In this document: positions 11,028 to 32,253 of the stretch, in pieces | How positions within the stretch are numbered: position 1 is the stretch's first letter | Layout of the letters: each line of letters begins with the position of its first letter | NCBI GenBank assembly: GCA_964525635.1 | Contig: CAZGJX010000043.1 | Span: 1 to 32,515, forward strand | Source: an uncultured archaeon | GTDB lineage: Archaea > Asgardarchaeota > Lokiarchaeia > Sigyniarchaeales > SOKP01 | Direction of reading: 5' to 3' | Length of the DNA: 32,515 bases | The notes under the pieces: generated by a model | Database searches by the model: none | Seen by the model: the letters and a program-made list of their open reading frames with translations, nothing else | Told to the model about the DNA's origin: nothing | Translations under genes and position numbers: made by a program

Positions 11028-11072
11028 GAAAAAAAGAAAAAAAAAAAGAGTATGATTAAGAGTTTAAATAAT

Positions 11073-13010: not shown

Positions 13011-13210
13011 TTTTCATCATTTTTGTTATTTAATTACCCTTTCAAGGGTTTAAGATTGAAAGTGCTAAATTTATTTATAATATTTGAGGCACCCTTTTTG
13101 AACTTAAAAAAAAATAAATTTCATATAATCTCAATAAAGCTGTAATTCCCTAAATCTATCAAATAAGTAAAAAATGAATTCGATTACAAATATCAGAGTT
13201 AATTATCTAT

Positions 13211-15472
13211 CTATTCTCTAATCAAAAATAGGTTTAAATTATGACCTACTTTTTGCGTTTTTATTAAATTATTATTTTTCAATTTATAGATGTGATAATT
13301 TAATGTTGTCTTTTTTAATTCTAACTTATTTGCAATTGTAGAAGGGATAATCCCTGGATTCTTCTCTATCAAATATAATATTTGTATTCTTAACTTTGAT
13401 TTGATTAAAACTTTATTGTATTTATCTAAATCCATGTTTTCAATACGCGAAAAATATGATTTATATTGCCCTATTGATTTTTTCTTAATAATTTTAAATT
13501 CTTCTAGTACCTTTAAATGCCATCTTAATTGTCCTGATTGTAAATAACATTCTCTTAGTAATTCTTTAAAATGAATACCAGGATTTGATAAGATTACCCG
13601 AATTATTTTTTGACGATTTTTATTTTCAAAAATCTTATCAAAGTCAAGTTTTCTATGGACTATTAATTCTTTATTTCTTGTTCTTAGATATGATTTATAT
13701 TCCTGTAAAGATATAACCAAAGATATTGAAATTAATAATAAAATTATAAGAGCTAAGATAAGTAAAAAATAAGGTATAAGGAAAACAAATGGATTATCTG
13801 CTATTTCATCAATTCCCCTTCTTACATTATTATCAATTTGATAAACTTGAAGGGAGATAAGTGAAACCGTTAAAGAAATATTGCAGAAATCTATTAAGAT
13901 TTTCTTACTTAGTTTTTGTTTTCTTTTTTTTGTATTACTTTCTAAAAATAGAAGTAATGCTATACAACTTAAAATAAAAATACTAATTACAATAATAATA
14001 AAAGGATTTATTAATGGATTTGAAGTTGGATCCGGTAAAAATGAATATGATATTTGTATTGACATAATTTCTTGATCAAAACCCCAGCTTCCGAATGTAG
14101 AATCTTCCCAAATCACATAAATATTTTCAGATGAATCTGCAACAATAGAGGGATTTGTACTGTCTAAATTATTCCATCCCGTTTCATCATCTGAGATTAT
14201 AGTGACATTAGACCACCCTACTCCTTCTGTAAAATTCACACACATAATCTCAGCATCAGTACCCCAAACCCCATCTGTACCATCACTCCATACCACATGT
14301 AGACTTCCAGAAGCATTCAATGTAATATCAGGAACTATACTAGTACCATCATTCCAATAATAATTGTTATATCCATCTGAAATAACAGTTGCATTAGACC
14401 ATCCAACTCCTTGTGTATAGTTTACATACATGATCTCTGTATCAAGGACACCCCCTCCCCAAACACCCTCAGTATCATCACTCCATACCACATAAATATT
14501 TTGAGATCTATTAGCTATAATGGAGGGATACATACTTCCTCCATCATTCCAATAATAATTGTTATATCCATCTGAGATAATTGTTGCATTAGACCATCCA
14601 ACCCCTTGTGTATAGTTTACATACATAATCTCCGGATCAAGAGTGCCCCCTCCCCAAACACCCGTTGTAGAATCAACCCATACCACATTAACAGTTCCAG
14701 AAGAATCTACAGTAATTGAAGGTTCTTGACTTAAACCATCATTCCAATAAAAATTATTATATCCATCTGAGATAATAGTTGCACTAGACCATCCAACTCC
14801 TTGTGTATAGTTTACATACATGATCTCCGCATCAGTACCCCAAATCCCATTTGTGTTATCCATCCATACCACATGAATATTTCCAGAATTATCAACAGCA
14901 ATAGAAGGCTGAACACTATTATCATCATTCCAAAGAGTAATATCATCTGAAATAACAGTTGCATTAGACCATCCAACTCCTTGTGTATAGTTTACATACA
15001 TGATCTCCGCATCAGTACCCCAAATTCCAACAGTACTATCATCCCAAACGACATGGATATTCCCTAAATTATCTACGGCAATAGAAGGGGCCTCGCTGAA
15101 ATTATTATTCCAATAATAATCATTATATCCATCAGAGATCACTGTAGCATTAGACCAACCTATTCCTTCCATATAAAAAGCATACATAATTTCAGTATCA
15201 GGAATTCCTCCACCCCATAAACCGTTGGATTCATCAACCCATACTGCATATATATTTCCATCATCATCTATAACCATAGAGGAATCCCGACTATTAGCAT
15301 TATTCCAATAACTATTATTATATCCATCTGAAATTGGATTTACCTGGGAAAAATCAATAGTATTCGGTCTCAGTCTTTCTTGTTGATTGGAGTCTTCTAA
15401 GGGAAGAAAAAATAAGTTAAATAAACATATAATTCCTATAATACCAATATATTTAATATCAAATTTTTTCAT
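13211..15472 (-). CDS. Membrane-tethered transcriptional regulator: 7-repeat extracellular beta-propeller, about 3 TM helices, tandem winged-HTH (COG3398-like)
   Basis: Signal peptide; 7 repeats 'PSIxVDxxGNIHVVW'; hydrophobic helices; 'NRQKIIRVILSNPGIHFKELL...QLRWHLKVLE' and 'ILYLIEKNPGI...TLNYHIYKL'. Confidence 0.85.
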   Translation of the reverse strand: MKKFDIKYIGIIGIICLFNLFFLPLEDSNQQERLRPNTIDFSQVNPISDGYNNSYWNNANSRDSSMVIDDDGNIYAVWVDESNGLWGGGIPDTEIMYAFYMEGIGWSNATVISDGYNDYYWNNNFSEAPSIAVDNLGNIHVVWDDSTVGIWGTDAEIMYVNYTQGVGWSNATVISDDITLWNDDNSVQPSIAVDNSGNIHVVWMDNTNGIWGTDAEIMYVNYTQGVGWSSATIISDGYNNFYWNDGLSQEPSITVDSSGTVNVVWVDSTTGVWGGGTLDPEIMYVNYTQGVGWSNATIISDGYNNYYWNDGGSMYPSIIANRSQNIYVVWSDDTEGVWGGGVLDTEIMYVNYTQGVGWSNATVISDGYNNYYWNDGTSIVPDITLNASGSLHVVWSDGTDGVWGTDAEIMCVNFTEGVGWSNVTIISDDETGWNNLDSTNPSIVADSSENIYVIWEDSTFGSWGFDQEIMSIQISYSFLPDPTSNPLINPFIIIVISIFILSCIALLLFLESNTKKRKQKLSKKILIDFCNISLTVSLISLQVYQIDNNVRRGIDEIADNPFVFLIPYFLLILALIILLLISISLVISLQEYKSYLRTRNKELIVHRKLDFDKIFENKNRQKIIRVILSNPGIHFKELLRECYLQSGQLRWHLKVLEEFKIIKKKSIGQYKSYFSRIENMDLDKYNKVLIKSKLRIQILYLIEKNPGIIPSTIANKLELKKTTLNYHIYKLKNNNLIKTQKVGHNLNLFLIRE
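14050..15340 (-). repeat. Intragenic tandem repeats, period 180-195 bp (propeller blades)
   Basis: 'gcattagacc'-type anchor recurs at 14205, 14391, 14586, 14781, 14961 and 15147; copies at 14781 and 14961 are nearly identical over about 65 nt. Confidence 0.9.
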
Positions 15473-15834
15473 TTTAGAATCCTCAATTATAAAGCAATAT
15501 TGCTATTAATATCTGCATTTTTATTTTAGATTTATGAAATTCTTAAATCTGTATTTTTTTTTTTTATATTTTATTTTTAATGGGTTTTTTTATTTTTCTT
15601 TATAAATCTTATAATAAAGTAAGATCCTTTTTTCTAATATTCTTCATTTTTGATTAAAATTGGATTATTGATTTATATAATGCTTTTATTATATTTAAAT
15701 TCAATTATAAACCAAAATTTTCAAAAAAATATTGAAATCTATTTTTATTTTTTAAATCAGTATTTTTACACTCTCAATCTTCTTATATTATTTTTTTCCT
15801 AACTTCTTATATTCATTATTAAAATATCAAAGAT

Positions 15835-16131
15835 GTGATGATAAAAATGGAAGCTATTCAAAAAATGGCTAAATCTAATTGTATATATAAAAAATTAAGA
15901 GTTTTAAATCAAATAGAATCAAGATATCTATGCTCAATTTGTAATCATCCCTTATTCTTAGCTAGACTTGAGATTTGGGAAGAAAATTCTTTAAAAGAAG
16001 TGGATTATAATAATTACTTCTGTGAAAAATGTGGATTATTTGAATATGAACCAGAATATGATGCTAAAATATACTTCAACAAAAAAATTCATAATAAAAT
16101 ATATAGAGAACAATTAAAATCTTTTTATTGA
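15835..16131 (+). CDS. Small Zn-ribbon protein
   Basis: CSIC...CEKC pair; followed by a T-tract; true start could be 15838, 15847 or later. Confidence 0.6.
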   Translation: MMIKMEAIQKMAKSNCIYKKLRVLNQIESRYLCSICNHPLFLARLEIWEENSLKEVDYNNYFCEKCGLFEYEPEYDAKIYFNKKIHNKIYREQLKSFY

Positions 16132-16203
16132 ATTCTAACTTACTTTTTTTTTTTCAAAAATAGCAAGCAAAACAGGATCTTATACTTAAAAAAAAAAGAT
16201 AAT

Positions 16204-17754
16204 TTATTTATTTGGTCGTGTGAGTTTTCGATGAATTAAAAATATTAGAGAAATTACACCAATTCCAAAATAAAGAAAAAATAAAGGACCTAATGAAATT
16301 CCAGAATTATTAATTGAAAAAATTAATATCCCCTTTTCTTTCCATTGGATTTCACCTGATCCACTAACTCGCTGTGCATATATTCCAAGATTTCCAGTTA
16401 TATCCTCCCAGGTTATGATTGCTCCTCCATTACCATCGCTACATAGTTGGGGATCTACTTGTCTTTCATTTGCGGTACAAATTTCTGTTCCATTTGACAT
16501 CCATTGAACATCACCTAAACTATTTATTCGCTGTGCATAAATATCAGTTGGTTTATTTCTTAAATCCATCCAAGTAATAATTACCCCTCCATTTCCATCA
16601 CTACATAGTTGTGGACCTATTTGAAGACCATTTGCGGTACAAATTTCTGTTCCATTTGACATCCATTGAACATCACCTGAATGATTGACCCGTTGTGCAT
16701 AAATATTATATTCAAGAATTTCTCCATTTCTATTATCTGACCAAGTAATTATTACACCTCCATCACCATCACTGCATACTTGTATGTCTGAGAGGGAATA
16801 ATATAAGGTACCAACTTCTATTCCATTTAACATCCATTGTATATCACCTGAACTATTAATCCGTTGCGTATATATAGCTTTTAGCCCATTTCTTGCATCT
16901 TCCCAAGTTATGATTGCTCCTCCATTATCATCACTACAAATCCGTGGTGTATATTGGTAATTTGAAGCATTACATATTTCTAATCCATTTGATATCCATT
17001 GTATATCACCAGAACTATTAATCCGTTGTGCATATATATCTCCTTCCCCACTTCTTTTATCTTGCCAAGTAATGATTACCCCCCCATTACCATCACTACA
17101 AAGTTGGGGAGCTGCTTGAGTTCCATTTGCGATACATATTTCTATCCCATTTGGAATCCATTGAATATCACCTAAACTATTAATCCGGTGTACATATATA
17201 TCTCCTTCCCCACTTCTTTCATCTTGCCAAGTAATGATTACCCCCCCATTACCATCGCTACAAATTTGTAGGTTCTCTTGATCATTAATTATTTTACAGA
17301 CATCTATACCTTTTATTTCCCAGTCAACATCTCCTAATGAATTAATAGCCTGTGTGAAAATATCATGCCCCATATTTGAATCTCTATAACTATCCCATGC
17401 AATAATTGCTCCTCCTACACCATCACTACAAATTTTTGGCATATTACTTCCATCTATTGTATTTATATACACACCATTTTCTTTCCATTTGATATATCCT
17501 GAAGAATCTATTTTTTGAGTATAAATTTTATTGGCATTATAATTCCAAGTTATAATCGCTCCACTAACACCATCCCTACAAATTTGAGGATAACTAAGAT
17601 ATTTATCAGAAGATTTAATTTCAGAACTATAAGAATTTTGATTATTACTATAATTCATAAGTTTATAATTGAAATCAATATTGAGGTCTAAAAAGAATAG
17701 GATTATAAACAATGCCCAATTCCCATATTTTCGAGAAAATCTAGTCTTTATCAT
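16204..17754 (-). CDS. Cell-surface 8-repeat beta-propeller-like protein with C-terminal membrane anchor
   Basis: N-terminal hydrophobic segment; 8 repeats '[IL]CSDGNGG[AV]IITWxD..DIYAQRINSxGDIQW'; C-terminal TM plus basic tail 'GISLGPLFFLYFGIGVISLIFLIHRK'. Confidence 0.85.
   Translation of the reverse strand: MIKTRFSRKYGNWALFIILFFLDLNIDFNYKLMNYSNNQNSYSSEIKSSDKYLSYPQICRDGVSGAIITWNYNANKIYTQKIDSSGYIKWKENGVYINTIDGSNMPKICSDGVGGAIIAWDSYRDSNMGHDIFTQAINSLGDVDWEIKGIDVCKIINDQENLQICSDGNGGVIITWQDERSGEGDIYVHRINSLGDIQWIPNGIEICIANGTQAAPQLCSDGNGGVIITWQDKRSGEGDIYAQRINSSGDIQWISNGLEICNASNYQYTPRICSDDNGGAIITWEDARNGLKAIYTQRINSSGDIQWMLNGIEVGTLYYSLSDIQVCSDGDGGVIITWSDNRNGEILEYNIYAQRVNHSGDVQWMSNGTEICTANGLQIGPQLCSDGNGGVIITWMDLRNKPTDIYAQRINSLGDVQWMSNGTEICTANERQVDPQLCSDGNGGAIITWEDITGNLGIYAQRVSGSGEIQWKEKGILIFSINNSGISLGPLFFLYFGIGVISLIFLIHRKLTRPNK
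16330..17590 (-). repeat. Intragenic tandem repeats, period about 162 bp
   Basis: 50-nt identical blocks at 16467-16516 and 16629-16678; near-identical blocks starting about 17032 and 17194. Confidence 0.9.
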
Positions 17755-19940: not shown

Positions 19941-20234
19941 ATGAATAAAAAAGGAGTAGATATAGCCCAACAAGTATCATTTGCCTGTTATAATCGCTCT
20001 GTTATCATAAAAGATATCGAAAATTTAAGCAAAAAGCTCTATAATCTTCCTATAATGAAAGGAGAGATTTTGAAATTTGATTATAAAGGAGATATTATAG
20101 AACTTGTGGTTCTAAACCATACTCCAGAGCCAGGTGTGGTAGTAATTACGGATGAGACTAAATTTTTTTTACAGCATGGAGATTATAAATCAAGAATAGA
20201 ACAAATAAAGAAGACAATACTTCAGAGGTGTTAA
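19941..20234 (+). CDS. Small protein resembling the second (Nc, CDC48_2) subdomain of the Cdc48/VAT N-domain
   Basis: 'AQQVSFA...LSKKLYNLPIMKGEIL...IELVVLNHTPEPGVVVITDETKF' follows the archaeal Cdc48 pattern AxxVxhAP..LxxxPhxxGD..hxhhVxxxxP.GhVhIxxxT. Confidence 0.6.
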   Translation: MNKKGVDIAQQVSFACYNRSVIIKDIENLSKKLYNLPIMKGEILKFDYKGDIIELVVLNHTPEPGVVVITDETKFFLQHGDYKSRIEQIKKTILQRC

Positions 20235-20237
20235 ATT

Positions 20238-22388
20238 GTGAAAGAAGTTTGGCATTCACGGGTAAAAATCACACAATTTCCAATGAAAGTCGAGAAAGAA
20301 AAAGTATTTCTTTATATGTTAGGAAGTAGAGAAATTTCCAAGACGTGGATGTATGATATTTTGTCAGACAAATCTGTTTATGGATTGGAGATAGTATGTA
20401 ATAGAAGTCTTTCGATGGTATTTTTTAAGAAAGTGAGTTCTTTTGAGGAAGCTCGTTTTCAAGGTAAAAAATTGTTGAGTTTATTGGAATTAAAGTTTCA
20501 GGGCTTAACAGGGATTGTGGAAGTACTCCGGGTAGGGGACATGGTTTGTGAGGAGAATTTTCTTCTTTATGAGCTAAAGCTTCCTAGATTGGAGGTAAAA
20601 GATACAACTCTTTTTCCAATATTATCGAAAATAGTGCATATTTTTAAGAATCTATATGGTTATACGATGAAATTTTATATAATTTGGCAACGCGATGACT
20701 CAAGAAATTATGAGAAGCTTGATTTTAAAACTGGTGATATGGCTCTCTATGAAACGTATAAGATAAAATTATTTGTAATGGAGTTATTTAAGGGGAGTTC
20801 TATAGAGGATAGGAGGGGGTATTTAGAGGCTTTTAAGATTAATTTAGAATTTTTTATTTGTGATTTAATTAGTAGTTTAAGAGTTTCTGGAAATATAATT
20901 AAATGCTCTCCTGACTATCTGAGAAAATTGTATAAGCTTAATGTATTTTGGAAGAATAAGATGGTGATACAGACGGGTGTGAGATATGCTGATATGTATA
21001 GGGAACTACTTCCTCATTTAATGCCAAGTTTTATTAATCCAAACAACGTGGATTTTAGTTTTTTAGAGATCCTTCCTATTCCAAAATCAATAGGCTTATC
21101 GAGAGAAAACCTTAATTTTATAAATTTAAAAGGAAAAAAGCGAGATATTATTCTTGGGGAGTATATATCAAATGGAGTTCCCACGAAAAAAGCTGCTTCA
21201 CTTTCCCTGCAATCCTTTTCTCAGAGCGTAATAATTTTTGGTCAACCTGGGACGGGGAAGACAAATTTGCTTGGTCATCTCTCAAAGGAACTTTATTTAA
21301 AAGCAAAAGATGTTGGGATATTATACTTAAATTTGGGTAAAGGTAATCAAGAGCATTATTATTTTTTTGATCGTTATTTGAAATATAAGGACCCTGATCT
21401 TAGAGTTCCCTATTATATAGAGGGAAATCCGAAATATTGTAATAAAGATATATCCGAGACCGCGACTTATGTGATTAGCTCATTAGGATTGAAAGACCCT
21501 GTCGATAAAGTCCTTTCCAACCTTATGCATTGGTATAAAAAGAATCTAGGGCATTTACCTTATGATTTAGAGCTATTATTAATTAACTTACTGAGCTGGT
21601 ATGAGGTAAATAGTTACCACGAAGAATATCAGACAAATATCTTACGAGCCCTTGAAAATAGAATTTCTTCATTATTTTCAAATTCTGATTACCAAGCTAT
21701 CTCTGAAATGAAGGAGAAATTTCAAAAAGGCAATGGAGATTTAAAATCATTAACAAAGCTGGTCTTTAATAAGGCATTAAATAAGACCTTGGAATTAAAG
21801 GATGGTTTTAAAGTTCCAGATTTGTTTAAAGAGTGGAGAGCAGGGAAGAAGATTTTCATCGATTTATCTATGTGCAATATCCATGTAAAGCGTTTGGTTA
21901 GTAATGCGATTTTTCAAATGGTTAGGAGCTTAATTCCTGATATGGATGTAGAATCCCTTCAAAATATTATCGTTATTGATGAAGCTCACCAGCTATTAGA
22001 GAAGCCAATCATTAATAATCCTTTAGATGATGATTGCATTGCTCGTGAGCAAATCGAGAAGATATTTAACACCCTTTTAAGAGAATTTAGAGGGAAAGGT
22101 TTAGCATTTATTCTTGCTGATCAGACACCACATTTATTATTCAAATGTGTTTCAACCCTCCCAAGTCTCAAAATATTATTTCGGTTGGATTATAATAGTT
22201 CTGAACTCTTTACCAATAACAAAGAGGAATTAGATTTGATTACCTTCCAAAAGAATCGACAAGCCTTAGTGTTGAATGGAGTAACTGCTGAGCGCTATAT
22301 TATTAAGACTTTTAATTACACTCCCTTTGTTTCACCCCATTATAATAATAAAAATGAAATAATAAAAAAGGAGGAAATTATGTTATGA
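20238..22388 (+). CDS. FtsK/HerA/VirB4-superfamily ATPase (DUF87-like) with an uncharacterised ~300-aa N-terminal region
   Basis: Walker A 'GQPGTGKT' (21240-21263), Walker B 'IIVIDEAHQLL', arginine finger 'LREFRGKG', 'LADQTP'; no obvious TM segment; GTG start. Confidence 0.88.
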   Translation: MKEVWHSRVKITQFPMKVEKEKVFLYMLGSREISKTWMYDILSDKSVYGLEIVCNRSLSMVFFKKVSSFEEARFQGKKLLSLLELKFQGLTGIVEVLRVGDMVCEENFLLYELKLPRLEVKDTTLFPILSKIVHIFKNLYGYTMKFYIIWQRDDSRNYEKLDFKTGDMALYETYKIKLFVMELFKGSSIEDRRGYLEAFKINLEFFICDLISSLRVSGNIIKCSPDYLRKLYKLNVFWKNKMVIQTGVRYADMYRELLPHLMPSFINPNNVDFSFLEILPIPKSIGLSRENLNFINLKGKKRDIILGEYISNGVPTKKAASLSLQSFSQSVIIFGQPGTGKTNLLGHLSKELYLKAKDVGILYLNLGKGNQEHYYFFDRYLKYKDPDLRVPYYIEGNPKYCNKDISETATYVISSLGLKDPVDKVLSNLMHWYKKNLGHLPYDLELLLINLLSWYEVNSYHEEYQTNILRALENRISSLFSNSDYQAISEMKEKFQKGNGDLKSLTKLVFNKALNKTLELKDGFKVPDLFKEWRAGKKIFIDLSMCNIHVKRLVSNAIFQMVRSLIPDMDVESLQNIIVIDEAHQLLEKPIINNPLDDDCIAREQIEKIFNTLLREFRGKGLAFILADQTPHLLFKCVSTLPSLKILFRLDYNSSELFTNNKEELDLITFQKNRQALVLNGVTAERYIIKTFNYTPFVSPHYNNKNEIIKKEEIML

Positions 22389-22726
22389 CAGATTTGAATT
22401 ACCTAAATAATTGGAGATATAAAGAAAAAAGAAAGGAAAAATCTGAGGAAAAAGTGCATGATGAATTTCAAAATGAGAAGCAAAATAAAGATAAGAGGTT
22501 AGAATTTGATCCATTTCATTATTTAAAAAGTGAGAAAGCGAACTCTTGTAGGATTGACTTAGGACCCAAGAAATCCAAAGAAGAAAAGCCAGTTGTCATT
22601 ATAATTGCGGCAGCCCAACCAGAGCCAGAATTTGACAAGTCAGAAGAGCTAATAGATCACACTATAATAAAAGATGATCCGATGAGGAATGAAGAAAAAC
22701 GAGATGTGAGCTTATCTGAAGAATAA
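22385..22726 (+). CDS. Small highly charged hypothetical protein
   Basis: ATGA overlap with the ATPase stop; GGAGG at 22370-22374. Confidence 0.7.
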   Translation: MTDLNYLNNWRYKEKRKEKSEEKVHDEFQNEKQNKDKRLEFDPFHYLKSEKANSCRIDLGPKKSKEEKPVVIIIAAAQPEPEFDKSEELIDHTIIKDDPMRNEEKRDVSLSEE

Positions 22727-22734
22727 AGAAGAAA

Positions 22735-25700
22735 ATGAGCGATAAGGGATTTTGGTATAGAGAAAAGGGCAAATCAAAGGGGTCTCCTGAAGATGAGAAG
22801 GATGTTGAAGGTAAAAATGAGAAGAAAAGAGATAAGAATAGGGAACGCTCCTCAGAATTAAGAGGAGATAGGCCTAATAAAGATAAACCTTTCTTTAAAA
22901 GAGAGAAAAATGAACTTAAATTAGATTTAAGAGAAAAAAAGAATGAAGATAAAGAAATTGTTCCATTTAAGGCACTTTTTACCCCTTCTCATAAATTCGA
23001 TTACAGTTCATCTCTAAAAAAAGGGGAGAAGGAAGAGGCATCAACACTAAAAAAGAATGGTTCTATAGACGCAGATTCTAATCTCGATATCACATCAGAT
23101 TCAACGCCAAAATTAGAAAAAGAAGAGGAGAAGAAAGGAGTAGTAAAGAATGATGATAATCGTCAACAGAGTGTAGTATTACCAGATAAAATAGAGAAAG
23201 GTTATAATAAAAATTCCAAGGAAAAATTAAAAGAGCCAACAGATAAGACCCTTATAGTTGGTTGGGTTGATTTAGAACCTATTAGAGATCCTAAAGTATT
23301 AGAGGATTATAAGGATAATAAGCCAATTTCAAAAGTACAAGAAAATTTTGTTGATACTCCTACTAAACTGAAACATGATAAAGAAGCATTAGATAATCAC
23401 ATTATAATTGATGCTAATGATCTTGAACTGAAAGAGGAATTATTTATTAAAGAAAATGATGAAGAACTAAATAAAATTAGTGAAGTTAGTAAATCTCTTG
23501 AATATAATGCAAATTTATCTAATATTAGAAACAATCTTATCGAGCCTAAAGCTATCAAGATTACTAGTGAGGATTTAAATTTAATTGATGTTAAAGAAAG
23601 AAAAAAAGAAGTGAAAGAAAAGAAATCCAATAGAGAAGTTAATGATAATCCTCCTCAAGAAAAACTTAAAACTATTCAAAAACTCCATGAAAAAAGAGAA
23701 AAGAATGAGGAAATAAATAAAATAACTCCTCAAAGAATAAATCGAATTGATCAACCAATAGATATTAGCAATATTGATATAAAAATTAAAAGTATTGAGA
23801 TTTCGAATCAATCTACGTTCGAAGAACCATTTAAGACATATAAATTGAATCCTTCCAAGAAATCTCAATTGAATATTTATCATTTAGAAAAAAATTCCTC
23901 GAATAAAGAGGAGAAAGATTCCAATTCAAAAGAAATAGAATCTAATCGGGAAACTCAAAGTGAGATAGAAAATGAGAGAAGGAATGATGCTAAGACAGAA
24001 ACTAAACCTAATTCAAATGAATTTAATAGAAAAGAAAAGAAATCAAATATTATATCAAAAGAAGAGGATGTAAGACTAAATCATAAAAATAAAGAAAGCT
24101 GTGAAATTTGGAGAAATCTACAAAAAGAAGCATTATGGATAAAATATCTAAGAGTAAATCTCCTTAAATATAAGGGAGAGTATAATTCAGAAGAGACAAA
24201 GGCATTACTGAATCAATTATTATATCTTTATAAAAATTGTCGATATTGTTATAAACTTAAACAAAAATTGAACCAGAAGCGGAATAATGGTAAATTAACT
24301 AATGAAGATGTGAAATTATTAGAAAAAATTTCGAAATTCCTAAAATCAATTAGTCCATTTGAAGAGGAAATCTTTAAAAGTTATGTTGATTTTCGGCGAC
24401 GATTCTATAACAAACAGATGACAAAAAATCAAGTTTATCCTTTTTTAGAACATCTTTACCGAAAATTAAATGCTTTACAATTTTCAAAAGATTGGAAAGA
24501 TTATATTAAAAATCACAAGGAATTACTTCAAAATCTAGGAAATGGTGATGTAGCTCATATATTACAAATTCTAAATAAGGATGAAATAGATGGAGATGAT
24601 ATCAAATTGATAGCTTCTAAACTTAGTATATTAGAAACCAAGCAATTAATTGAGATATTTGGTTATTTATTTAAGCTCCATACCCATAATTATATCCGCT
24701 GGGGATTTGATTTTTATCCACACGTGAAACAGCAAATAATAATAGATTTTATAGAAAAAAATAGGAGTTTAAGACGTTTCAGTGAGACATCAATTGATGG
24801 GTATCATACTCAAATTTCTAAAAATAAAATCATAAATCAACCAACCTCAATAAATGAAAAGGCACTTTTTGAGAAGCTTGAAAACTGGAAAGGCTCAAGT
24901 CCCTATTATCCTTATTTCAGAAAATTTATCGAGGATCTTGTTAAGTTGTTAAATAATTTTGGGATTCTTACAACGAATAATTTAAATGAGCTTGAAGAAG
25001 TAGTTTCTATAGGCAAATCAGGGATTCATGGAATGTTATGGTCCTTAAAGGAGGGTTCAGAGCGCAACCATTTTAATATTGGTGAGGAGACCTTAGATAA
25101 ATGGTTTATTCAACTTCAAATGAAAATTACCCAAAGTAGATTAAAAATCAATAAAGGAATGTATCTAAAGGACCTCCATGGATTATTTAATGACTATTAT
25201 CGAATTTCAGGGATGAATTCTTCAAATGTATTATATAAACCTTTTCGAATGATGATTGCTCAATTAGTTGAGTATTTGTATCAATTAAATCTTATTCAGG
25301 AGATTAATTATAAATCACTTGATACGCTTATTGGAATACGAGGTTTCTGTTCAAAGTCATTTTATAAATTAAAAAATGATTTTAATTTTATTCCTCAAAA
25401 CATCATCACTTTTAAGACATCTTTATTGAAAAATATTGAACCAATGAAGTTACCACTGAATCAGATTAAGAGAATCAAGGACATTATAAACGAGTTTTTA
25501 TCAGAAATCGCTCAGAAAAACGAGATTAATGACCTCTTGGTGGATTACAAAGATTCACCATTTAAAAAGTTGATACATAATTTAATGTCTTTAGATAATG
25601 TATTTGGTCAAATCGGAAAAAAATCAGTCTTGGCTAGATTATATTTCCAGAGTTATGATGTTTGGAAGAAAGCTTTACCTACACTAAACTCCAATGCCGA

Positions 25701-26295
25701 GCCAGTAAGACTTCCACTTTATAAGATTTGGCGTATTGTCTATTGTTCTCAGATGTGGACAGTTAAGACATTTACCGATAAAGGACTAAATATTGAAATA
25801 GATATGTTGGAAAAACTCAAGGAGCAAATTAAGTTAAAAATAGATGAGTGGGTGTTTGAAAATCCGTATAAAGAGCCATATGTATGTGAACTTCCCACAA
25901 GAAAGACTCGGAAATTTTATAAGATACAGCAATTCGAAAAAAATTATCAATATTCTGAATATGAATTAATCCAATTATTATGGATGGCTTGTGTTGCGTA
26001 TACTAATAATTTAAGCTTTTCTTTTTCCCAAATGAACAAGCGCCTTAATTATAAGAATCTTCGCAATGTATTAAGTCAAGGAGATGTTAATATAAATATA
26101 GATAAGCTAAAGGGAATTCTTTTAACTATTAATAAATGGGCTGGTGAAGAAGCAAAAGTTATAAGTCAAAATACAAAAATTAAAGGTATGGTTGAAATGC
26201 CCTATTCTTATAAAATGAAGATATATAGACGTGTGATGGATGAAATTTCAGAATACATAGGAATACATAGATGCAAGAGGACTATCCTTCATTAA
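22735..26295 (+). CDS. Giant protein, 5' part: ~450-aa K/E/N-rich low-complexity region followed by helical repeats; truncated by a frameshift
   Basis: 1186-aa ORF; its last 11 residues arise out of frame after the duplication at 26251-26270. Confidence 0.85.
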   Translation: MSDKGFWYREKGKSKGSPEDEKDVEGKNEKKRDKNRERSSELRGDRPNKDKPFFKREKNELKLDLREKKNEDKEIVPFKALFTPSHKFDYSSSLKKGEKEEASTLKKNGSIDADSNLDITSDSTPKLEKEEEKKGVVKNDDNRQQSVVLPDKIEKGYNKNSKEKLKEPTDKTLIVGWVDLEPIRDPKVLEDYKDNKPISKVQENFVDTPTKLKHDKEALDNHIIIDANDLELKEELFIKENDEELNKISEVSKSLEYNANLSNIRNNLIEPKAIKITSEDLNLIDVKERKKEVKEKKSNREVNDNPPQEKLKTIQKLHEKREKNEEINKITPQRINRIDQPIDISNIDIKIKSIEISNQSTFEEPFKTYKLNPSKKSQLNIYHLEKNSSNKEEKDSNSKEIESNRETQSEIENERRNDAKTETKPNSNEFNRKEKKSNIISKEEDVRLNHKNKESCEIWRNLQKEALWIKYLRVNLLKYKGEYNSEETKALLNQLLYLYKNCRYCYKLKQKLNQKRNNGKLTNEDVKLLEKISKFLKSISPFEEEIFKSYVDFRRRFYNKQMTKNQVYPFLEHLYRKLNALQFSKDWKDYIKNHKELLQNLGNGDVAHILQILNKDEIDGDDIKLIASKLSILETKQLIEIFGYLFKLHTHNYIRWGFDFYPHVKQQIIIDFIEKNRSLRRFSETSIDGYHTQISKNKIINQPTSINEKALFEKLENWKGSSPYYPYFRKFIEDLVKLLNNFGILTTNNLNELEEVVSIGKSGIHGMLWSLKEGSERNHFNIGEETLDKWFIQLQMKITQSRLKINKGMYLKDLHGLFNDYYRISGMNSSNVLYKPFRMMIAQLVEYLYQLNLIQEINYKSLDTLIGIRGFCSKSFYKLKNDFNFIPQNIITFKTSLLKNIEPMKLPLNQIKRIKDIINEFLSEIAQKNEINDLLVDYKDSPFKKLIHNLMSLDNVFGQIGKKSVLARLYFQSYDVWKKALPTLNSNAEPVRLPLYKIWRIVYCSQMWTVKTFTDKGLNIEIDMLEKLKEQIKLKIDEWVFENPYKEPYVCELPTRKTRKFYKIQQFEKNYQYSEYELIQLLWMACVAYTNNLSFSFSQMNKRLNYKNLRNVLSQGDVNINIDKLKGILLTINKWAGEEAKVISQNTKIKGMVEMPYSYKMKIYRRVMDEISEYIGIHRCKRTILH
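26251..26270 (+). repeat. Exact 10-bp tandem duplication GAATACATAG-GAATACATAG causing a frameshift
   Basis: Read directly; deleting one copy fuses 22735-27007 into a single 1420-aa ORF. Confidence 0.92.
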
Positions 26296-27007
26296 ACAAA
26301 AAGGGAAATCATGGTATGATAGAGAATTATGGTATGATAAGCTCACTCGTTCTTATCATATTGTTTTTTTATTTGCCCGTCAATTGGGATTTGATCCACT
26401 CACCTTTATACCCTTAGAGGATAGTATTTTTAAACAGCGAATCTATATAAGGTCATCTGGTAAGCTCTTGTTTACAAGTGATTATCGTCGCCATCATTTG
26501 GATATAAATAAAAAACGTTCAGTTTTTTTTCAGGATTTAGCGCTTACAGATATAAGGACTCATAATTACTGGAATCAACTGAGTGAGGAGGAAAGTAAGG
26601 AGCTTTTAAGACGTTTCTCTTTGTTAGTGAATAAAAGAGGAGAGGTAACAAAAGTAGATATAATAAAAACATTTGAAGGATTAGATTGGGTTTTATATAA
26701 TGAAAAGACTGGATGGTTTAATTATAAAACATTTAATTATAATATCGCAAAATTTAACCAGAGAAAAAATGTATTAAATAACTTGGATTTAGAAGGATTT
26801 ATAGAAAAAAATAAAATGGAGTATAATGAATTATATAATAGATTTTTTAAAAATATTGTAGAAGATAAATTAAAGAGAATAATTTTATATATAAAACCTC
26901 CAAATTTAGGATTTCGTGATCATACAGATCATTTTATAATAGAGCAATATTTTAAAATAGAAGCAAAATTAAAAAAAAAATGTAATAATAAATTTCCAGA
27001 GTCATAA
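26261..27007 (+). pseudogene. Frameshifted 3' part of the giant gene carrying an HNH-like nuclease motif
   Basis: Frame is open from 26261 (EYIDARGLSFIKQKGKSWYDRELWYDKLTRSYHIVFLFARQLGFDPLTF...), 41 codons before the TTG at 26384; 'RRHHLDINKKRSVFFQDLALTDIRTHNYW' resembles HHxDxNK..[ND]LxL.....H. Confidence 0.7.
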
Positions 27008-27039
27008 TATTTAAATAATTAACATGGTGTATAATAATT

Positions 27040-27432
27040 GTGAGAAAAAAAAGGACTATTATGGTAAGACATCATAAATTAAAAGAAATTAGAAATAATC
27101 TAAGAAATCTTCTTATAAATGTTACTCAAGAAGAATTACTGAAAATTCTTGATAAAATAAAAGAAATGGAATATGATTGTAATGGTAATATGATCCATCC
27201 AAATAATATGAATATAAAGAAGAAATCTATATTAAATGAATTAACAAAAAAGGAGGTTGAATTAAGAAATCTAATTAACAATTCAATATGTGAATGTCGA
27301 AGGTGTGTTAAGACAGATCAAGATATGACCTATAATCCTGTTGATAAGTCATGGTATTGTGTGGATTGTTATAAGGAAATGCAGAGATGGACCGCAAAAA
27401 AGAAGACTGGAATCTCTGTTTTATTTCCTTAA
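27040..27432 (+). CDS. Cys-rich putative Zn-binding protein, paralog 1
   Basis: 'SICECRRCVKTDQDMTYNPVDKSWYCVDCY'; homologous to the N-terminal part of 27557-28195. Confidence 0.8.
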   Translation: MRKKRTIMVRHHKLKEIRNNLRNLLINVTQEELLKILDKIKEMEYDCNGNMIHPNNMNIKKKSILNELTKKEVELRNLINNSICECRRCVKTDQDMTYNPVDKSWYCVDCYKEMQRWTAKKKTGISVLFP

Positions 27433-27556
27433 TCCTAATTATTTTTTATTTTTAAGTTAAGCTAATAATTATAGCAGAGATTCATAAAATCCATAAGCTC
27501 ATACATATGAAAAGAGGGAAGTTTAAATTATTTAAAAGAAAAGATAAATAATAATT

Positions 27557-28195
27557 ATGAAAAAAAAAAGAACTATCTCATTAAAACATCCCAAGCTGCA
27601 ACAAATTAGAAATAATTTGAGGATTTTATTTATAATGGCAACAAATACTCAATGGTTTCATCTCCATAATGAAATAGATGAAATTGAATATGACCAAAAT
27701 GGAGAATTAATTTTTTTTGATGATTTAGCTGAAGAACAAAAAGAAAGAATAATTGAATTAGAAAAAGGAAAAACAGAATTACATAACTTGGTTGAAAGGT
27801 CAATATGTAAATGTCGACGCTGCGTGAAGACTGATCAAGATATGACTTATAATCCTAATGATAAGTCATGGTATTGTGTAGAATGTTATACTGAGATGTA
27901 TAATTCAGATCAAAGAATTTTATATTTAGAACATAAGCTTACCTTATCAGAAGAACAGATTAGGGAATTTGTATATCGTTTAGCTAGTCCCGAAGGCTGC
28001 CAATATAATGGAATTAAATGGAGATGTGGAGGGAAGAATCATGAATATTCACGGCAAATTTTGAATAGAATGAAGGTTTCAAAGAAGAATAAAGAAGTAT
28101 TATTGGAATTATGTAAAGAATTAGGTGGTTATTGTGATTGTGAGATTTTAATGAACGTTGCTTCTTATTTATTAGGTGAAGAGACACCATGGTAA
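27557..28195 (+). CDS. Cys-rich putative Zn-binding protein, paralog 2, with C-terminal DUF2695-like domain
   Basis: 'SICKCRRCVKTDQDMTYNPNDKSWYCVECY' plus 'LCKELGGYCDCEILMNV' (GGYCDCE.L.N signature of DUF2695). Confidence 0.8.
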   Translation: MKKKRTISLKHPKLQQIRNNLRILFIMATNTQWFHLHNEIDEIEYDQNGELIFFDDLAEEQKERIIELEKGKTELHNLVERSICKCRRCVKTDQDMTYNPNDKSWYCVECYTEMYNSDQRILYLEHKLTLSEEQIREFVYRLASPEGCQYNGIKWRCGGKNHEYSRQILNRMKVSKKNKEVLLELCKELGGYCDCEILMNVASYLLGEETPW

Positions 28196-28230
28196 AGATT
28201 TGAATTTGTTATGATTAATATATAATTATA

Positions 28231-28353
28231 AAGATGGTACAAGATAAAACTTATAATCTTGTTGATAAATCCTGATATTAGATTGATTGTTATAAAGAGA
28301 TATAGAAATCAACAACGAAAATATGTATAGAAATTTCAATCTTATCTCGCTAT
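28231..28353 (+). pseudogene. Decayed third copy of the 3' end of paralog 1
   Basis: Gapless alignment to 27310-27432: KMVQDKTYNLVDKS*Y*IDCYKEI*KSTTKICIEISILSR versus KTDQDMTYNPVDKSWYCVDCYKEMQRWTAKKKTGISVLFP. Confidence 0.8.
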
Positions 28354-28534: not shown

Positions 28535-29125
28535 TTATTTTTTTGGTAATATAAGAGAAATATCATAATAACCAAGATCTTGACCTACTACTTTCTTTAT
28601 CCAAATATTATTATTCATAATTTTTTGAAAATATTTAAAATCTGATGGAGATAATAAATCATTTATAAGAGATATTTTTTCATTTATTGGGAATTCAGGG
28701 AATTCAATTAATTTTGTATTAGCTGAAATTCCTTTGAGCTTTAATAGAAGATTTAATATTTTTAAATAATCACTATTATATTTTTCCAAGGTTTTAAAAT
28801 ATCCTTGAACCGTAGAAGGAGTAATATTAAATTTTTTTGCTATATCAGATATATTTAATTCAAGTGCCTTTAATTGAAGTGCTATTTCAATTTTTCTTGA
28901 CCTTGAATGAATATTACTTTTTTTAGATTTAGGTTTTTTTTCAATTGTAATCAATTCAATTAGTTTATGTTTTTTTAACCATCTTAAAAATTTAGCATTA
29001 TTATTTTTTTGATTTATTAAATCAGTTGGAATTTTAACTGATTTATTATTCTCAATAGCTTTATCAATTATTTTTATAAAATCTCCAAATGATATTCTAA
29101 GCGATTTAATTTCAATAGAATCCAA
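28535..29125 (-). CDS. HTH-containing putative DNA-binding protein
   Basis: 'LNISDIAKKFNITPSTVQGYFKTLE'; starts 9 nt after the stop of the upstream ATPase gene. Confidence 0.7.
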   Translation of the reverse strand: MDSIEIKSLRISFGDFIKIIDKAIENNKSVKIPTDLINQKNNNAKFLRWLKKHKLIELITIEKKPKSKKSNIHSRSRKIEIALQLKALELNISDIAKKFNITPSTVQGYFKTLEKYNSDYLKILNLLLKLKGISANTKLIEFPEFPINEKISLINDLLSPSDFKYFQKIMNNNIWIKKVVGQDLGYYDISLILPKK

Positions 29126-29134
29126 ATTAATGAT

Positions 29135-31333
29135 TTATTCACTACCTTTATTTGTTATATTTTGTATTTCTTTAAAGATTTGAATCATCAAACTCTCCGG
29201 ATCATTTTTACAATCTGATTTATCAAAATAATCCCAATTAAATTCTATACGCTCATTTTTTTCTCTTATAATATTATTTAATTTAAGATATTCTAATGCT
29301 TCATCAAAAGAATTTTTTAACAGAGGTTGTTTTATAGAATTTTTAACAGTTTTAATAGTTCTATATGAATATACTTTATTTCTACTTCCCATACTAGTTA
29401 TTATTTCTACAGCTGTTCTTTTGGAAGTTTCATCAATATTTCGTAATTTTTTTAAGAGTTCAAGATAAGATTCTTCCTTAAATTGAACTTGGGGTGGTGG
29501 TTTTGCATCTGAGTTTTTTTTTACAATTGGAATCTCTTCCTCCTCAGTTAAAAATAAATTTGTTAGTTTTCCATGAAAATCTTTATTCAATAATCTTAAT
29601 AATTTATCAAAATCTTCAAATTTTTCACTAAGTTGAGTGTAATTTGTTTTTCCTAAACCAACAAGACAATTTAGAAGTGTTTGATCATTAATAATTATGG
29701 GAATTATCAATTGTAAATCAATATTGGAATCAAAATATCCAAAATTTTTCCATTTATGAAGACTTTTTCTAACAAAATCTTCAGTTAAATTTTTACAAAA
29801 GATGAAAAAAATCACTATCGAATTTTTATTTTTTACACAATTAATAACTTGTTTTGATTTTCCTAAATCAAATGATTCAGGTTCTCCAAATGATTTAATT
29901 TCAGCAAATATTTCAATATTACCTCCTTTAATAGCCATAAATTTACCATCTATTAATTTTCCATTTCCCACGTCAATATGTTTTTTAACAAAATGAAAAT
30001 TTAGAAAATTTAAAAAACTTGAAAAAATAGGTTCTATAATATTCCCAATTGTTAAATAATGAGTACCATGTTTTTCTGCTGTATTATATTCATTTTGACC
30101 TTGTTTTATTTCATCTGTTAGATTTATAAATGATTTAATTGAAGAAATGATCGCTTGATTTGCTTTTCTTCTCGAAAGTTTTTTATCAATTTTATTTTCT
30201 AGAGTTGGTAGAAAAGTACTAAAGATTTCCAGATCTGCTTTTTTATATGCTTTTTCTAATAAAATGAGCCATTTTAACACAGCTTCTTGTGCTTCATCGT
30301 CCTGATATACACCTTGCTCTCTAACGTGAACATATGATCCAGAAGGAGTTACTTTCATCATTTCTGTAGATAATCTTTGTATTCCAGGGGCTCTATCACT
30401 TTGTTCGCTTCTAATTGATTCAAAAACTCTTGAAGTTAAACAGAAAATTTGATATAATCGAAAATCTGAAAGTCTATCTAATAATTTTCGAAAAAAGTAT
30501 TGTCTTTTTAAAAAATTTTTACTCCAAATTGAATCCTCCTCCACTTTTGATAACCAATCATCACACTCATCATACATAAATAAGAAGACAATTTTATACT
30601 TTGAAGCAAACGCCATTATATCAAAAACTATTTTTAATAAACGTTCTTCATCAATTAATGGTAATTGAGAGATTTCATATCTAATATTAGAGATTTTTTT
30701 ATCTATTCCTGGGGAACTCTCTATAATTCTTTCAAGTTCTATTAAATTTCTATTAATCTTATCCAGATGCTCAGGAGCATTTTTTGCTTTTCTAAATTCT
30801 ACTAATAAGTTTAGAAAATTTTCAAATGAATAAGTATCGTCTTTAAAATCTTCAGAATCCTGGTATAATTCTATTTGTTTTGTTAAAATACGAGCAGTTT
30901 CATTTTCAATTTGCTCTCCTAAAAATGTTGCAGTTAAATCAACTGTACCATTAAAAACAACAGGAATAGTACAAGAATAAGGCGGATTCTTACTAATTCT
31001 ATTATCATAAATTATACTCTTTATTAATTCAATATATTGAGTTTTAGAACCACCATACTCTGATTCATAGTATTGAGCTCCAGTCTCATTTTTATCATTA
31101 GTTGCGATTCTTCTAATATTATTATCAAATTCTCTAAAACCTTTCTTCATATTTTCTGAAAGTATTAATATAGTTTCTAATTTTTCTTTAAATCCCCCAC
31201 TTTGTAAATGTTCTGATTTTAATATCGAAGTACCTTCATATTCCAATACCTCCAATATTCTCTTTGCAATATCTCGATTTATATTACTTAAATTGATTTC
31301 GAGTTGTCTATATTTTTTTTGTATAGATGTCAA
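29135..31333 (-). CDS. P-loop ATPase (BrxD/DUF2791-like, deviant Walker A) fused to a PD-(D/E)xK nuclease-like domain and a C-terminal wHTH-like domain
   Basis: 'IAKRILEVLEYEGT', 'ESEYGGSKT', Walker B 'FLFMYDECD', nuclease-like 'GNIIEPIF...LIDGKF...IFAEIKSF', C-terminal 'FDEALEYLKLNNIIRE'. Confidence 0.6.
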   Translation of the reverse strand: MTSIQKKYRQLEINLSNINRDIAKRILEVLEYEGTSILKSEHLQSGGFKEKLETILILSENMKKGFREFDNNIRRIATNDKNETGAQYYESEYGGSKTQYIELIKSIIYDNRISKNPPYSCTIPVVFNGTVDLTATFLGEQIENETARILTKQIELYQDSEDFKDDTYSFENFLNLLVEFRKAKNAPEHLDKINRNLIELERIIESSPGIDKKISNIRYEISQLPLIDEERLLKIVFDIMAFASKYKIVFLFMYDECDDWLSKVEEDSIWSKNFLKRQYFFRKLLDRLSDFRLYQIFCLTSRVFESIRSEQSDRAPGIQRLSTEMMKVTPSGSYVHVREQGVYQDDEAQEAVLKWLILLEKAYKKADLEIFSTFLPTLENKIDKKLSRRKANQAIISSIKSFINLTDEIKQGQNEYNTAEKHGTHYLTIGNIIEPIFSSFLNFLNFHFVKKHIDVGNGKLIDGKFMAIKGGNIEIFAEIKSFGEPESFDLGKSKQVINCVKNKNSIVIFFIFCKNLTEDFVRKSLHKWKNFGYFDSNIDLQLIIPIIINDQTLLNCLVGLGKTNYTQLSEKFEDFDKLLRLLNKDFHGKLTNLFLTEEEEIPIVKKNSDAKPPPQVQFKEESYLELLKKLRNIDETSKRTAVEIITSMGSRNKVYSYRTIKTVKNSIKQPLLKNSFDEALEYLKLNNIIREKNERIEFNWDYFDKSDCKNDPESLMIQIFKEIQNITNKGSE

Positions 31334-31713: not shown

Positions 31714-32253
31714 TTAATAAAGAATTTCTTCTATGAAATGATCTTCATGTTCTTCTTCAACACATTCATCACATAAATAGACATGTTTGTCTGTATTTTC
31801 ATAACACTCTATACAATCCCATATTGCTTTTACTTTTTTTCCTTTATGTTTACAGGATGTACAATATTTAATACGAGTTCTACTTTTTGCAATAATACGA
31901 GGTGTATCATTCGCATGTTCTAAACTTTCAATATCCTCTAAAATAATAATATGATTTATATTAGCACCAAAATCATAGACATATTCCATTTTATTTCCTT
32001 TTGATAAATTTAGGTCATTAATTTTTCTTTTTTCTCCAAATCCAGAATTATCAGGTATCATTTCACCCAATTCTTTTGATTTCCAAGCAAGACCTGAAAA
32101 AAAACCACTTACATGATCCCATGTATCATAATTAAAAGCCTGACGTATTATATCATCAAAATCTCTAAGAGTTTGATCACCCTTTATTTCTATTCTACGC
32201 CATAAACCTTTTCGGTATTTTAAAGCAATCTTAAAAGTAAAAACACTTTCCAT
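31714..32253 (-). CDS. pRiA4b ORF-3 / IS1096 passenger TnpR family protein with C-terminal Cys/His Zn finger
   Basis: 'LWRRIEIKGDQTLRDFDDIIRQAF...DHVSGF...MEYVYDFGANINHIIILE'; tail 'CTSC...WDCIEC...LCDEC...HEDH'. Confidence 0.85.
   Translation of the reverse strand: MESVFTFKIALKYRKGLWRRIEIKGDQTLRDFDDIIRQAFNYDTWDHVSGFFSGLAWKSKELGEMIPDNSGFGEKRKINDLNLSKGNKMEYVYDFGANINHIIILEDIESLEHANDTPRIIAKSRTRIKYCTSCKHKGKKVKAIWDCIECYENTDKHVYLCDECVEEEHEDHFIEEILY

Follow-up and report, generated by a model that had tools for sequence, protein, structure and literature searches.

Locus and Gene Organization

The subject of this analysis is a gene cluster of an uncultured Asgard archaeon that encodes an FtsK/HerA-superfamily ATPase, a giant protein with a C-terminal HNH nuclease domain and small cysteine-rich (Cys) proteins. 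The cluster lies in a 32,515-nucleotide (nt) stretch of chromosomal DNA of low GC content (~27%; assembly GCA_964525635.1, contig CAZGJX010000043.1), here called the window, which also carries genes for the primase subunits PriS and PriL, GINS, eIF2-alpha and EF-1alpha. It begins 246 nt downstream of EF-1alpha and consists of seven open reading frames (ORFs) on the + strand, of 97, 716, 113, 1186, 207, 130 and 212 amino acids (aa), with intergenic gaps of 3, −4, 8 and 32 nt, and both the ORFs and the spacing are as given in a preliminary description of the same DNA. That description had also reported a 10-bp duplication, a repaired giant frame and a group of Cys-rich paralogues, and the tandem copy, a repaired frame of 1420 aa, and two intact paralogues with a decayed third were all recovered. 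The observed features of the locus, collected in Table 1, are not due to chance.

The window locus is a fusion of two modules of separate distribution, an ATPase with its giant protein on the one hand and an HNH domain with a Cys-family gene on the other. The preliminary description had presented the cluster as a single system; the order of ATPase and giant gene is indeed kept among relatives, but the HNH and Cys pair is also found alone or on giants without the ATPase. The architecture in which both modules are joined recurs in three cases (L018, P0023 and P0024).

Table 1. Features of the ATPase and giant nuclease locus, in window coordinates.
Feature	Position	Strand	Basis
97-aa stand-alone protein resembling Cdc48 N-domain subdomain 2 (beta-clam); probable ATPase adaptor	19941–20234	+	Pfam PF02933
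716-aa FtsK/HerA-superfamily P-loop ATPase (DUF87-like) with an uncharacterised ~300-aa N-terminal domain	20238–22388	+	Walker motifs, profiles
113-aa small charged protein, counterpart of the acidic/charged region after the ATPase in relatives	22385–22726	+	
First ORF of the giant, 1186 aa	22735–26295	+	
Giant, K/E-rich low-complexity N-terminal region, aa 1–469	22735–24141	+	composition
Giant, core 1, helical region, aa 470–730	24142–24924	+	BLAST, jackhmmer, AF2
Giant, core 2, helical module ahead of the HNH domain across the cassette family, aa ~710–1175	24862–26260	+	
Exact 10-bp tandem duplication (GAATACATAG ×2), which shifts the frame and severs the HNH domain	26251–26270	+	
HNH (beta-beta-alpha-metal) nuclease domain, in the shifted frame	26261–27007	+	alignment, AF2, fold matches
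Cys1, 130 aa; probable partner/inhibitor of the HNH domain	27040–27432	+	downstream linkage in 22/23 HNH loci
Cys2, 212 aa; Cys1 paralogue with C-terminal DUF2695	27557–28195	+	Pfam DUF2695, E 3.6e-8
Decayed third copy of the 3′ end of the Cys gene	28231–28353	+	82/123 nt identical to 27310–27432, gapless

The Giant Protein and Its HNH Domain

The N-terminal region of the giant is dominated by charged residues (residues 1–470: 31% K+E, with K 17%, E 14% and N 10%) and has no Pfam family match. Core 1 is shared, by BLAST and jackhmmer, with the giants of L004, L005, L008 and L018 and with P0030, P0036, P0040, P0046 and P0054, and was modelled by AlphaFold2 (AF2) as helical with moderate confidence, while core 2 was modelled as all-helical with a predicted local distance difference test score (pLDDT) mostly >90 and showed no significant fold match. 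The 717-aa AF2 model of residues 470–1186, in which core 1 and core 2 were folded together, was all-helical; only generic helical-bundle matches (Z ≤ 7.5) were obtained with it and no fold was assigned.

The duplication shortens the giant by 245 residues. Deletion of one GAATACATAG copy restores a single ORF of 1420 aa, in which no further lesion is seen. The 1186-aa and 207-aa ORFs are regarded as one broken gene because the same homologues match both pieces: homologues of residues 710–1186 also align, in a later part of their sequence, with the 207-aa ORF, and intact homologues read through the junction with matching sequence (...SWYDR.LWY...SYH..FLFARQLGF). The homologues of the 207-aa piece were recovered by a local phmmer search against the homologues of the giant; a word-based search had found none. 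The 207-aa ORF spans 26384–27007 with a TTG start at 26384, and it begins at LGFDP, as does a free-standing 212-aa HNH gene in L085. The locus in this genome has probably been disabled by the duplication, or left with a free HNH/Cys pair, and the duplication itself could be an assembly error.

The preliminary description had placed an HNH-like motif at the C-terminus and had proposed a fold check of the last 250 aa. In the C-domain, H79 and N166 are invariant among 22 sequences, and the conservation of H78 and of H101 is ≥90%; the corresponding window motifs are RRHHL and THN, with the codons of RHH at 26489–26497, of H101 at 26561–26563 and of N166 at 26756–26758. The AF2 model built from the 22-sequence alignment (pLDDT 83.8, predicted template modelling score 0.82) shows two strands (residues 75–79 and 93–97) and a helix (98–104), in which H79 ends the first strand and H101 lies in the helix. 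In an unbiased VIA-align search, Cap5 was the top match (Z 5.7, root-mean-square deviation 2.8 over 91 aa), the Cas9 HNH domain scored Z 4.1–4.5, and further fold matches were the HNH domains of IscB, McrA, PtuB, retron HNH, T4 EndoVII and ZRANB3; in a second-look structural search, all 20 of 20 rows were HNH-containing proteins. Since the fold matches agree across families and the His residues are conserved, the prediction that the C-domain adopts an HNH fold is considered sound, and both the motif and the beta-beta-alpha fold of the last 250 aa can be upheld. The C-domain had no match in Pfam, NCBIfam, PADLOC or the PDB sequences at E up to 1–10, and this HNH family appears to be too divergent for curated profiles. 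Similarly, Foldseek gave no PDB match at E ≤ 0.001 for either the helical or the HNH model, and BFVD gave none for the HNH model.

The HNH Cassette and Its Cysteine-Rich Partner

Residues 710–1420 of the repaired giant belong to a family of 52 representatives among 1.84 billion. The C-domain is present in 19 of 400 genomes, all from one taxonomic family, where it ends open frames of ~200 to 12,745 aa. The window's own genome has two further copies of the cassette, one terminating a 2884-aa protein and the other forming a 661-aa stand-alone protein; neither is near an ATPase, and both are followed within ~35 nt by a Cys-family gene. Likewise, none of the unrelated giants that bear the cassette, up to 12,745 aa in length, adjoins an ATPase, and at five loci 5′-truncated HNH genes (116–371 aa) stand with a Cys gene in unrelated contexts, one of them beginning at LGFDP like the 207-aa ORF. 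Of 23 HNH loci, 22 have a Cys-family gene as the immediate downstream neighbour on the same strand, in one case as a tandem pair. The tie of the Cys genes to the nuclease suggested earlier is thus confirmed at nearly all HNH loci, with the addition that lone Cys2-type members, which have the DUF2695 tail and no HNH gene, also occur, on contig C151 of the same genome (1655–2260, −) and in L004 near an ATPase locus.

Cys1 has a conserved basic N-terminus (R.I.IK...L..IRNN.R), a variable middle and a CxxC...CxxC zinc ribbon, and shares 54% identity with Cys2 over 114 aa. Cys1 and Cys2 are the units of a 517-nt tandem repeat, into which the 9 nt before each start codon also fall, and the decayed copy has three in-frame stops. 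No annotated relatives of the family were found, and the Atlas search with Cys1 returned sub-threshold leads only.

Several observations were made on relatives of the cassette and of the Cys family. The 12,745-aa frame lies on contig C7 of G190 (19221–57455; L079–L081) and ends in core 2 and the HNH C-terminus, after which a Cys-family gene follows; ~10 hydrophobic or transmembrane segments lie within the first 1200 aa of the protein, which also has Laminin_G_3 and H-type lectin domains and whose body is acidic and rich in S/T/N/Y, and an 11,241-aa counterpart is found on contig C77 of G241. In L004, a locus without HNH, a gene for a full Cdc48 N-domain protein of 170 aa (L004:128–637) lies 5 kb upstream and a Cys2-like gene lies at L004:3952–4569, both on the same strand and upstream of an M50-like gene, the ATPase and a LAGLIDADG giant. 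On contig C9 of the window's own genome, a 5494-aa protein without transmembrane segment or signal (43996–60477, −) is followed by a 151-aa gene (43453–43905, −) whose N-terminus matches the Cys-family motif (hidden Markov model E 9.8e-5) with a different Cys pattern. The small Cys-gene family may be linked to giant genes more widely.

The ATPase Module across Asgard Archaea

The ATPase carries a Walker A motif (GQPGTGKT, residues 335–342), a Walker B motif (IVIDEAH, 578–584) and a DQTP motif (628–631), and G335, G338, G340, K341, D581, E582 and R618 are invariant among 17 homologues. The pattern GxxGxGK[ST], followed by hhhhDE and then AH, agrees with the FtsK/HerA-type ATPase named in the preliminary description. 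Its PADLOC matches are mad8 (E 2.7e-14, over the P-loop domain) and HerA models (E 1.5e-6 to 9.5e-5); the Pfam DUF87 match (E 3.8e-4, 21.0 bits) is under the cut-off of 23.2, the closest Atlas clusters are DUF87/HerA_C proteins, and a PDB sequence search with the ATPase profile gave no useful match. The family comprises 18 clusters among 5.8 billion proteins and occurs in 63 of 400 Asgard genomes, including 55 of 134 in the taxonomic family to which the window belongs; two loci in one genome are frequent. It is confined to Asgard archaea, the named homologues being from Promethearchaeota, Promethearchaeia and Thorarchaeota metagenome-assembled genomes, and its patchy spread there indicates an accessory distribution. 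Searches of the IMG/VR viral contigs with two ATPase patterns found no relative.

Gene order was examined at ~37 non-redundant ATPase loci. In most of them, an ORF on the same strand begins −35 to +116 nt after the ATPase, and where at least 3.5 kb of downstream sequence is present (L003, L004, L005, L012, L014, L015, L018 and L021) this ORF encodes 700–1790 aa. The succession of ATPase, charged region or small protein, and long protein, which had been suggested as a check on the locus, is thus conserved in relatives. The N-termini of the giants of L003, L004, L005, L008, L009, L015 and L018 consist of 5–8 tandem acidic repeats of ~16 aa with the motif F-[DN]-P-N, which resemble a series of short linear motifs for binding. 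The 113-aa protein of the window carries a single EFDPF, where the relatives have these tandem arrays instead; its reading frame begins within the end of the ATPase gene, with a 4-nt overlap of start and stop and GGAGG at 22370–22374, and no family match was found in Pfam, PADLOC or NCBIfam. The same slot holds an 89-aa ORF in L003 and acidic/basic proteins of 143–228 aa in L011, L016, L019 and L020. The 113-aa protein corresponds to the acidic repeat region that forms the N-terminus of the giant elsewhere.

The C-termini of the core-1 proteins vary. An HNH domain is found in the window and L018, a double-motif LAGLIDADG domain in L004 and L005, and treble-clef zinc fingers in L008, and P0036, which shares core 1, ends in LAGLIDADG; PADLOC had no match for the L008 giant or for the stand-alone HNH paralogue. 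Together with a MazF domain fused to the ATPase of a congener, described below, these cases bear out the expectation that the C-terminal domain would vary. In addition, after ATPases with a fused transmembrane domain in L012 (12096–14219) and L014 (8658–11321), a Hint splicing domain enclosing LAGLIDADG makes up most of the C-terminal part, and this may represent either a genuine intein or a self-processing module of the Hint type.

The usual partner upstream of the ATPase is a membrane protein of 230–261 aa with 4–6 transmembrane segments, an invariant HExxH and a SAAPSxxDL motif; it has weak Pfam matches to M50/M50B and none in PADLOC. Elsewhere the ATPase itself bears a fused transmembrane domain, which has no HExxH. 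A small Cdc48-N-like protein, confined to the clade of the window, replaces the membrane partner only in the window, L002 and L003. In the window this 97-aa protein, whose gene stops 3 nt ahead of the ATPase start, matches Pfam PF02933 (CDC48_2) with E 1e-6 and 28.7 bits, above the cut-off of 22.4, which supports the identity first given to it, and its homologues in the equivalent position share 55% (L002) and 47% (L003) identity. It is probably an adaptor for the ATPase. The preliminary description had listed it as the first gene of the run; in most relatives the membrane HExxH partner or the fused transmembrane domain takes its place, and the Cdc48-like protein is a rare variant of the upstream partner.

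Two congeners show what occupies the same site elsewhere. In G160 (L002), EF-1alpha is followed by a Cdc48N-like gene and the ATPase, with no giant; the ATPase itself (L002:2267–4861, +) has a PemK/MazF domain (E 7.6e-18) at its C-terminus, and a Cas6-like gene (L002:4936–5808, −; E 1.4e-8) is convergent with it. In G159, synteny extends as far as EF-1alpha and unrelated genes come after. It follows from this comparison that the site is variable and that the ATPase is coupled to alternative nuclease effectors, a pattern typical of conflict systems, and the fusion of MazF to the motor points to intracellular action.

Comparison with Known Systems

No described system matches the locus in PADLOC, Pfam or NCBIfam, nor in the part of the archaeal polymorphic-toxin literature that was covered, and the statement of the preliminary description that it fits no known system therefore stands. 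MADS, Septu, the HerA-effector systems, the type VII secretion system (T7SS) and the aloposons each fail in a defining feature.

The locus resembles Sir2-HerA, DUF4297-HerA and Septu (PtuA ATPase with PtuB HNH) in that a HerA/DUF87-type or related P-loop ATPase stands beside a nuclease effector, in the swapping of effectors between loci and in the patchy, accessory spread; moreover, PtuB and the retron-associated HNH, from Septu and retrons, are among the fold matches of the C-domain. However, the nuclease effector of the locus forms the C-terminal end of a scaffold of 1420 aa, in which low-complexity and novel helical regions occur; moreover, a zinc-ribbon partner gene is present, most relatives have a membrane M50-like partner, and PADLOC gives weak single-protein matches to the ATPase and no system. 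The best of these profile matches, mad8, is the point of likeness to MADS, an 8-gene bacterial operon, mad1–mad8 (bioRxiv 10.1101/2023.03.30.534895). The other six proteins of the locus match no mad model, and membership in MADS was rejected.

Polymorphic toxin systems are reported to be rare in archaea, and the host here is an Asgard archaeon; in the familiar case of colicins E7 and E9 with their Im proteins, nuclease and immunity protein form a pair. The locus shares with polymorphic toxins a long protein with a variable C-terminal nuclease and a small gene immediately downstream, tandem and decayed small genes, truncated orphan cassettes, and the presence of one cassette on different N-terminal carriers. 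In contrast to them, no secretion or trafficking domain, RHS or filamentous repeats or known Imm family was found here; the cassette includes a ~470-aa helical module; and the Cys partner has strongly conserved ends and a divergence that only weakly tracks that of the HNH domain. HNH/EndoVII-fold toxins with adjacent immunity genes, and their delivery by a T7SS that depends on an FtsK/HerA ATPase, were described by Zhang et al. 2012 (PMC3482391). With type VII secretion the locus shares an FtsK/HerA-superfamily ATPase beside signal-less long proteins, C-terminal nucleases and downstream small genes, and the membrane partner of most relatives is a further likeness. The ATPase here, by contrast, has one P-loop domain, and the window copy is without an FHA or transmembrane region; no WXG100/LXG or EssA/EssB/EsaA-type genes were found, and the membrane partner is HExxH M50-like. 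The locus has neither the multi-domain ATPase of the EssC/EccC type nor a WXG100/LXG protein, and was not assigned to type VII secretion.

The aloposons of Heimdallarchaeia have a MinD/ParA-like ATPase and tandem giants of 3000–6000 aa, and integrate at tRNA sites (Wu et al. 2022; PMC8813620). They are alike in being Asgard-specific loci in which an ATPase gene is joined with giant genes of unknown function. The ATPase of the window is HerA/FtsK-like, there is one protein of 1420 aa, and the window holds no tRNA gene or integrase, so that the locus is not an aloposon.

Proposed Mechanism and Alternative Explanations

The general class of the locus is fairly well supported, namely an accessory conflict system composed of an ATPase, a scaffold with a swappable nuclease and a small partner linked to the nuclease. 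More specifically, and tentatively, we read it as an accessory conflict locus of two modules in which an ATPase-coupled nuclease effector is accompanied by an inhibitor-like partner, with action inside the cell favoured. Intracellular defence is favoured because MazF is fused to the ATPase in a congener, because the operon is without any membrane or secretion feature, and because effectors are swapped. The earlier suggestion of a conflict or export module is thus retained as to conflict; export is only a possibility, and the MazF fusion of G160 argues at least equally for defence within the cell, which the preliminary description had named as an alternative.

We infer the physical coupling of the parts, the nuclease activity, its inhibition by the Cys protein and the target. 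In the proposed mechanism, the HerA/FtsK-superfamily ATPase would be a ring motor that acts together with a long scaffold protein and an adaptor. The role of adaptor would fall to the soluble Cdc48-N2-like protein here and to the M50-like membrane protein in most relatives. The charged N-terminus and core 1 of the scaffold would engage the ATPase, and its C-terminus would hold the interchangeable nuclease. The second module, the helical module with the HNH domain, would move as a cassette with the small zinc-ribbon gene, whose product may inhibit the HNH domain in the manner of an immunity protein or antitoxin or, less likely, serve as its cofactor. The ATPase would control or position the tethered nuclease against foreign nucleic acid in the cell, and the Cys-rich protein would hold the HNH domain harmless until then. 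In this genome, the 10-bp duplication would have uncoupled the HNH domain from the scaffold.

Several findings weigh against this reading. The Z scores of the fold matches are modest (max 5.7), and the window copy is frameshifted. The pairwise divergences of HNH and Cys proteins are weakly correlated (rho 0.17), so that a tight toxin–immunity co-evolution is unsupported and the immunity reading is tempered. PADLOC finds nothing in the neighbouring genes, including those for a 732-aa protein and a helix-turn-helix (HTH) protein, and the neighbourhood thus gives no support for a defence island. Most relatives are membrane-associated, by way of the HExxH partner or the fused transmembrane domain, which fits export equally, and the presence of the cassette on lectin-bearing, multi-transmembrane supergiants that resemble surface proteins favours a secreted-toxin role.

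Export remains a serious rival, if an unlikely one in our estimation, because of the membrane partners in most relatives, the surface-protein-like supergiants, and the orphan cassettes and Cys arrays. According to this explanation, the locus is a type VII-like export system for polymorphic nuclease toxins, in which the membrane-anchored ATPase recognises the acidic N-terminal repeats and exports the signal-less giant, competitors are killed by its C-terminal nuclease, and the Cys genes form immunity arrays. A partner with 4–6 transmembrane segments and HExxH, or a transmembrane domain fused to the ATPase, would suit such a role, as would long proteins with conserved N-terminal parts and variable C-terminal nucleases, the occurrence of the HNH and Cys cassette at the end of a 12,745-aa protein that bears lectin domains and ~10 transmembrane segments, the tandem or decayed Cys genes and 5′-truncated orphan HNH and Cys pairs, and the known precedent of T7SS delivery of HNH-fold toxins (PMC3482391). 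However, the window operon has no membrane protein or signal peptide, the Pfam scan found no WXG100, LXG or other trafficking domain, and the ATPase has a single P-loop domain, unlike EssC/EccC; MazF on the ATPase itself, as in the congener, makes no sense for a secretion motor, the M50-like partner belongs to a protease family and not to a known channel, and the co-variation of HNH and Cys proteins is weak. A broader form of the idea, in which the ATPase, the M50-like partner and the core-1 giants make up a hitherto undescribed archaeal protein-export machine, comparable in function to type VII secretion, that recognises the tandem acidic F-[DN]-P-N motifs and carries giant polymorphic nuclease toxins between Asgard cells, with the Cys zinc-ribbon proteins forming a new immunity family, is likewise judged unlikely.

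The state of the window copy raises the prospect that it is a decaying remnant with no current function, its effector frameshifted and its downstream array eroding. The early end of the giant, 245 residues short, the three stops in the third Cys copy and the truncated HNH genes of several related genomes would all agree with this, whereas the other ORFs are intact and tightly spaced, the 1420-aa frame has no other lesion, the 207-aa ORF starts like the free-standing HNH gene of L085 and could still be made, and the duplication could have arisen in assembly; we hold this explanation to be somewhat doubtful. Improbable by comparison is a selfish origin, in which homing-endonuclease-like cassettes (HNH with Cys, or LAGLIDADG) have settled in the 3′ ends of long genes and the ATPase and giant serve a non-conflict role, such as the handling of DNA by a mobile element or some process at the membrane or cytoskeleton. 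HNH and LAGLIDADG are classic homing-endonuclease families, the HNH and Cys pair is found alone, truncated or at the ends of unrelated giants, and Hint with LAGLIDADG, of the intein type, occurs in L012 and L014; ATPases are also paired with giant genes in the Asgard aloposons (PMC8813620). But integrase, transposase and tRNA genes are missing from the window, as are att-like repeats at its flanks, the two patterns used on IMG/VR brought up no ATPase relative, the MazF of the congener is a toxin and not a homing enzyme, and a homing endonuclease needs no strictly linked small partner.

No prokaryotes are more closely related to eukaryotes than the Asgard archaea, and little of their conflict systems and giant proteins has been charted. 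The locus defines an unannotated ATPase family, present in ~40% of the genomes of one Asgard family and consistently paired with long proteins that bear swappable nucleases. It also defines two new families, one of divergent HNH domains and one of their zinc-ribbon partners, which move jointly and cap proteins as long as 12,745 aa. If the locus serves defence, it would be an Asgard-specific addition to archaeal immunity; should it serve export instead, it would represent a new archaeal secretion route.

Genomic Neighbourhood

No tRNA gene, Rfam family or att-like flanking repeat was found in the window, nor any integrase or transposase, and the operon proteins have neither a signal peptide nor a transmembrane segment, nor any known trafficking domain. 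The surroundings of EF-1alpha are variable throughout. Compared with L094 (contig C264 of G159), the window has extra genes between eIF2-alpha and EF-1alpha (10500–17754) that are missing in the congener, namely a 175-aa ORF, a gene for a 645-aa C13-peptidase-like protein, one for a 753-aa membrane protein with a propeller and a winged HTH, and one for a 516-aa protein. Downstream of the cluster, genes for the 732-aa protein, which has no Pfam match, and for the 196-aa HTH protein lie at 28535–31333 (−) and 31714–32253 (−), respectively, and are followed by a PRiA4_ORF3-family gene (E 1.1e-16).

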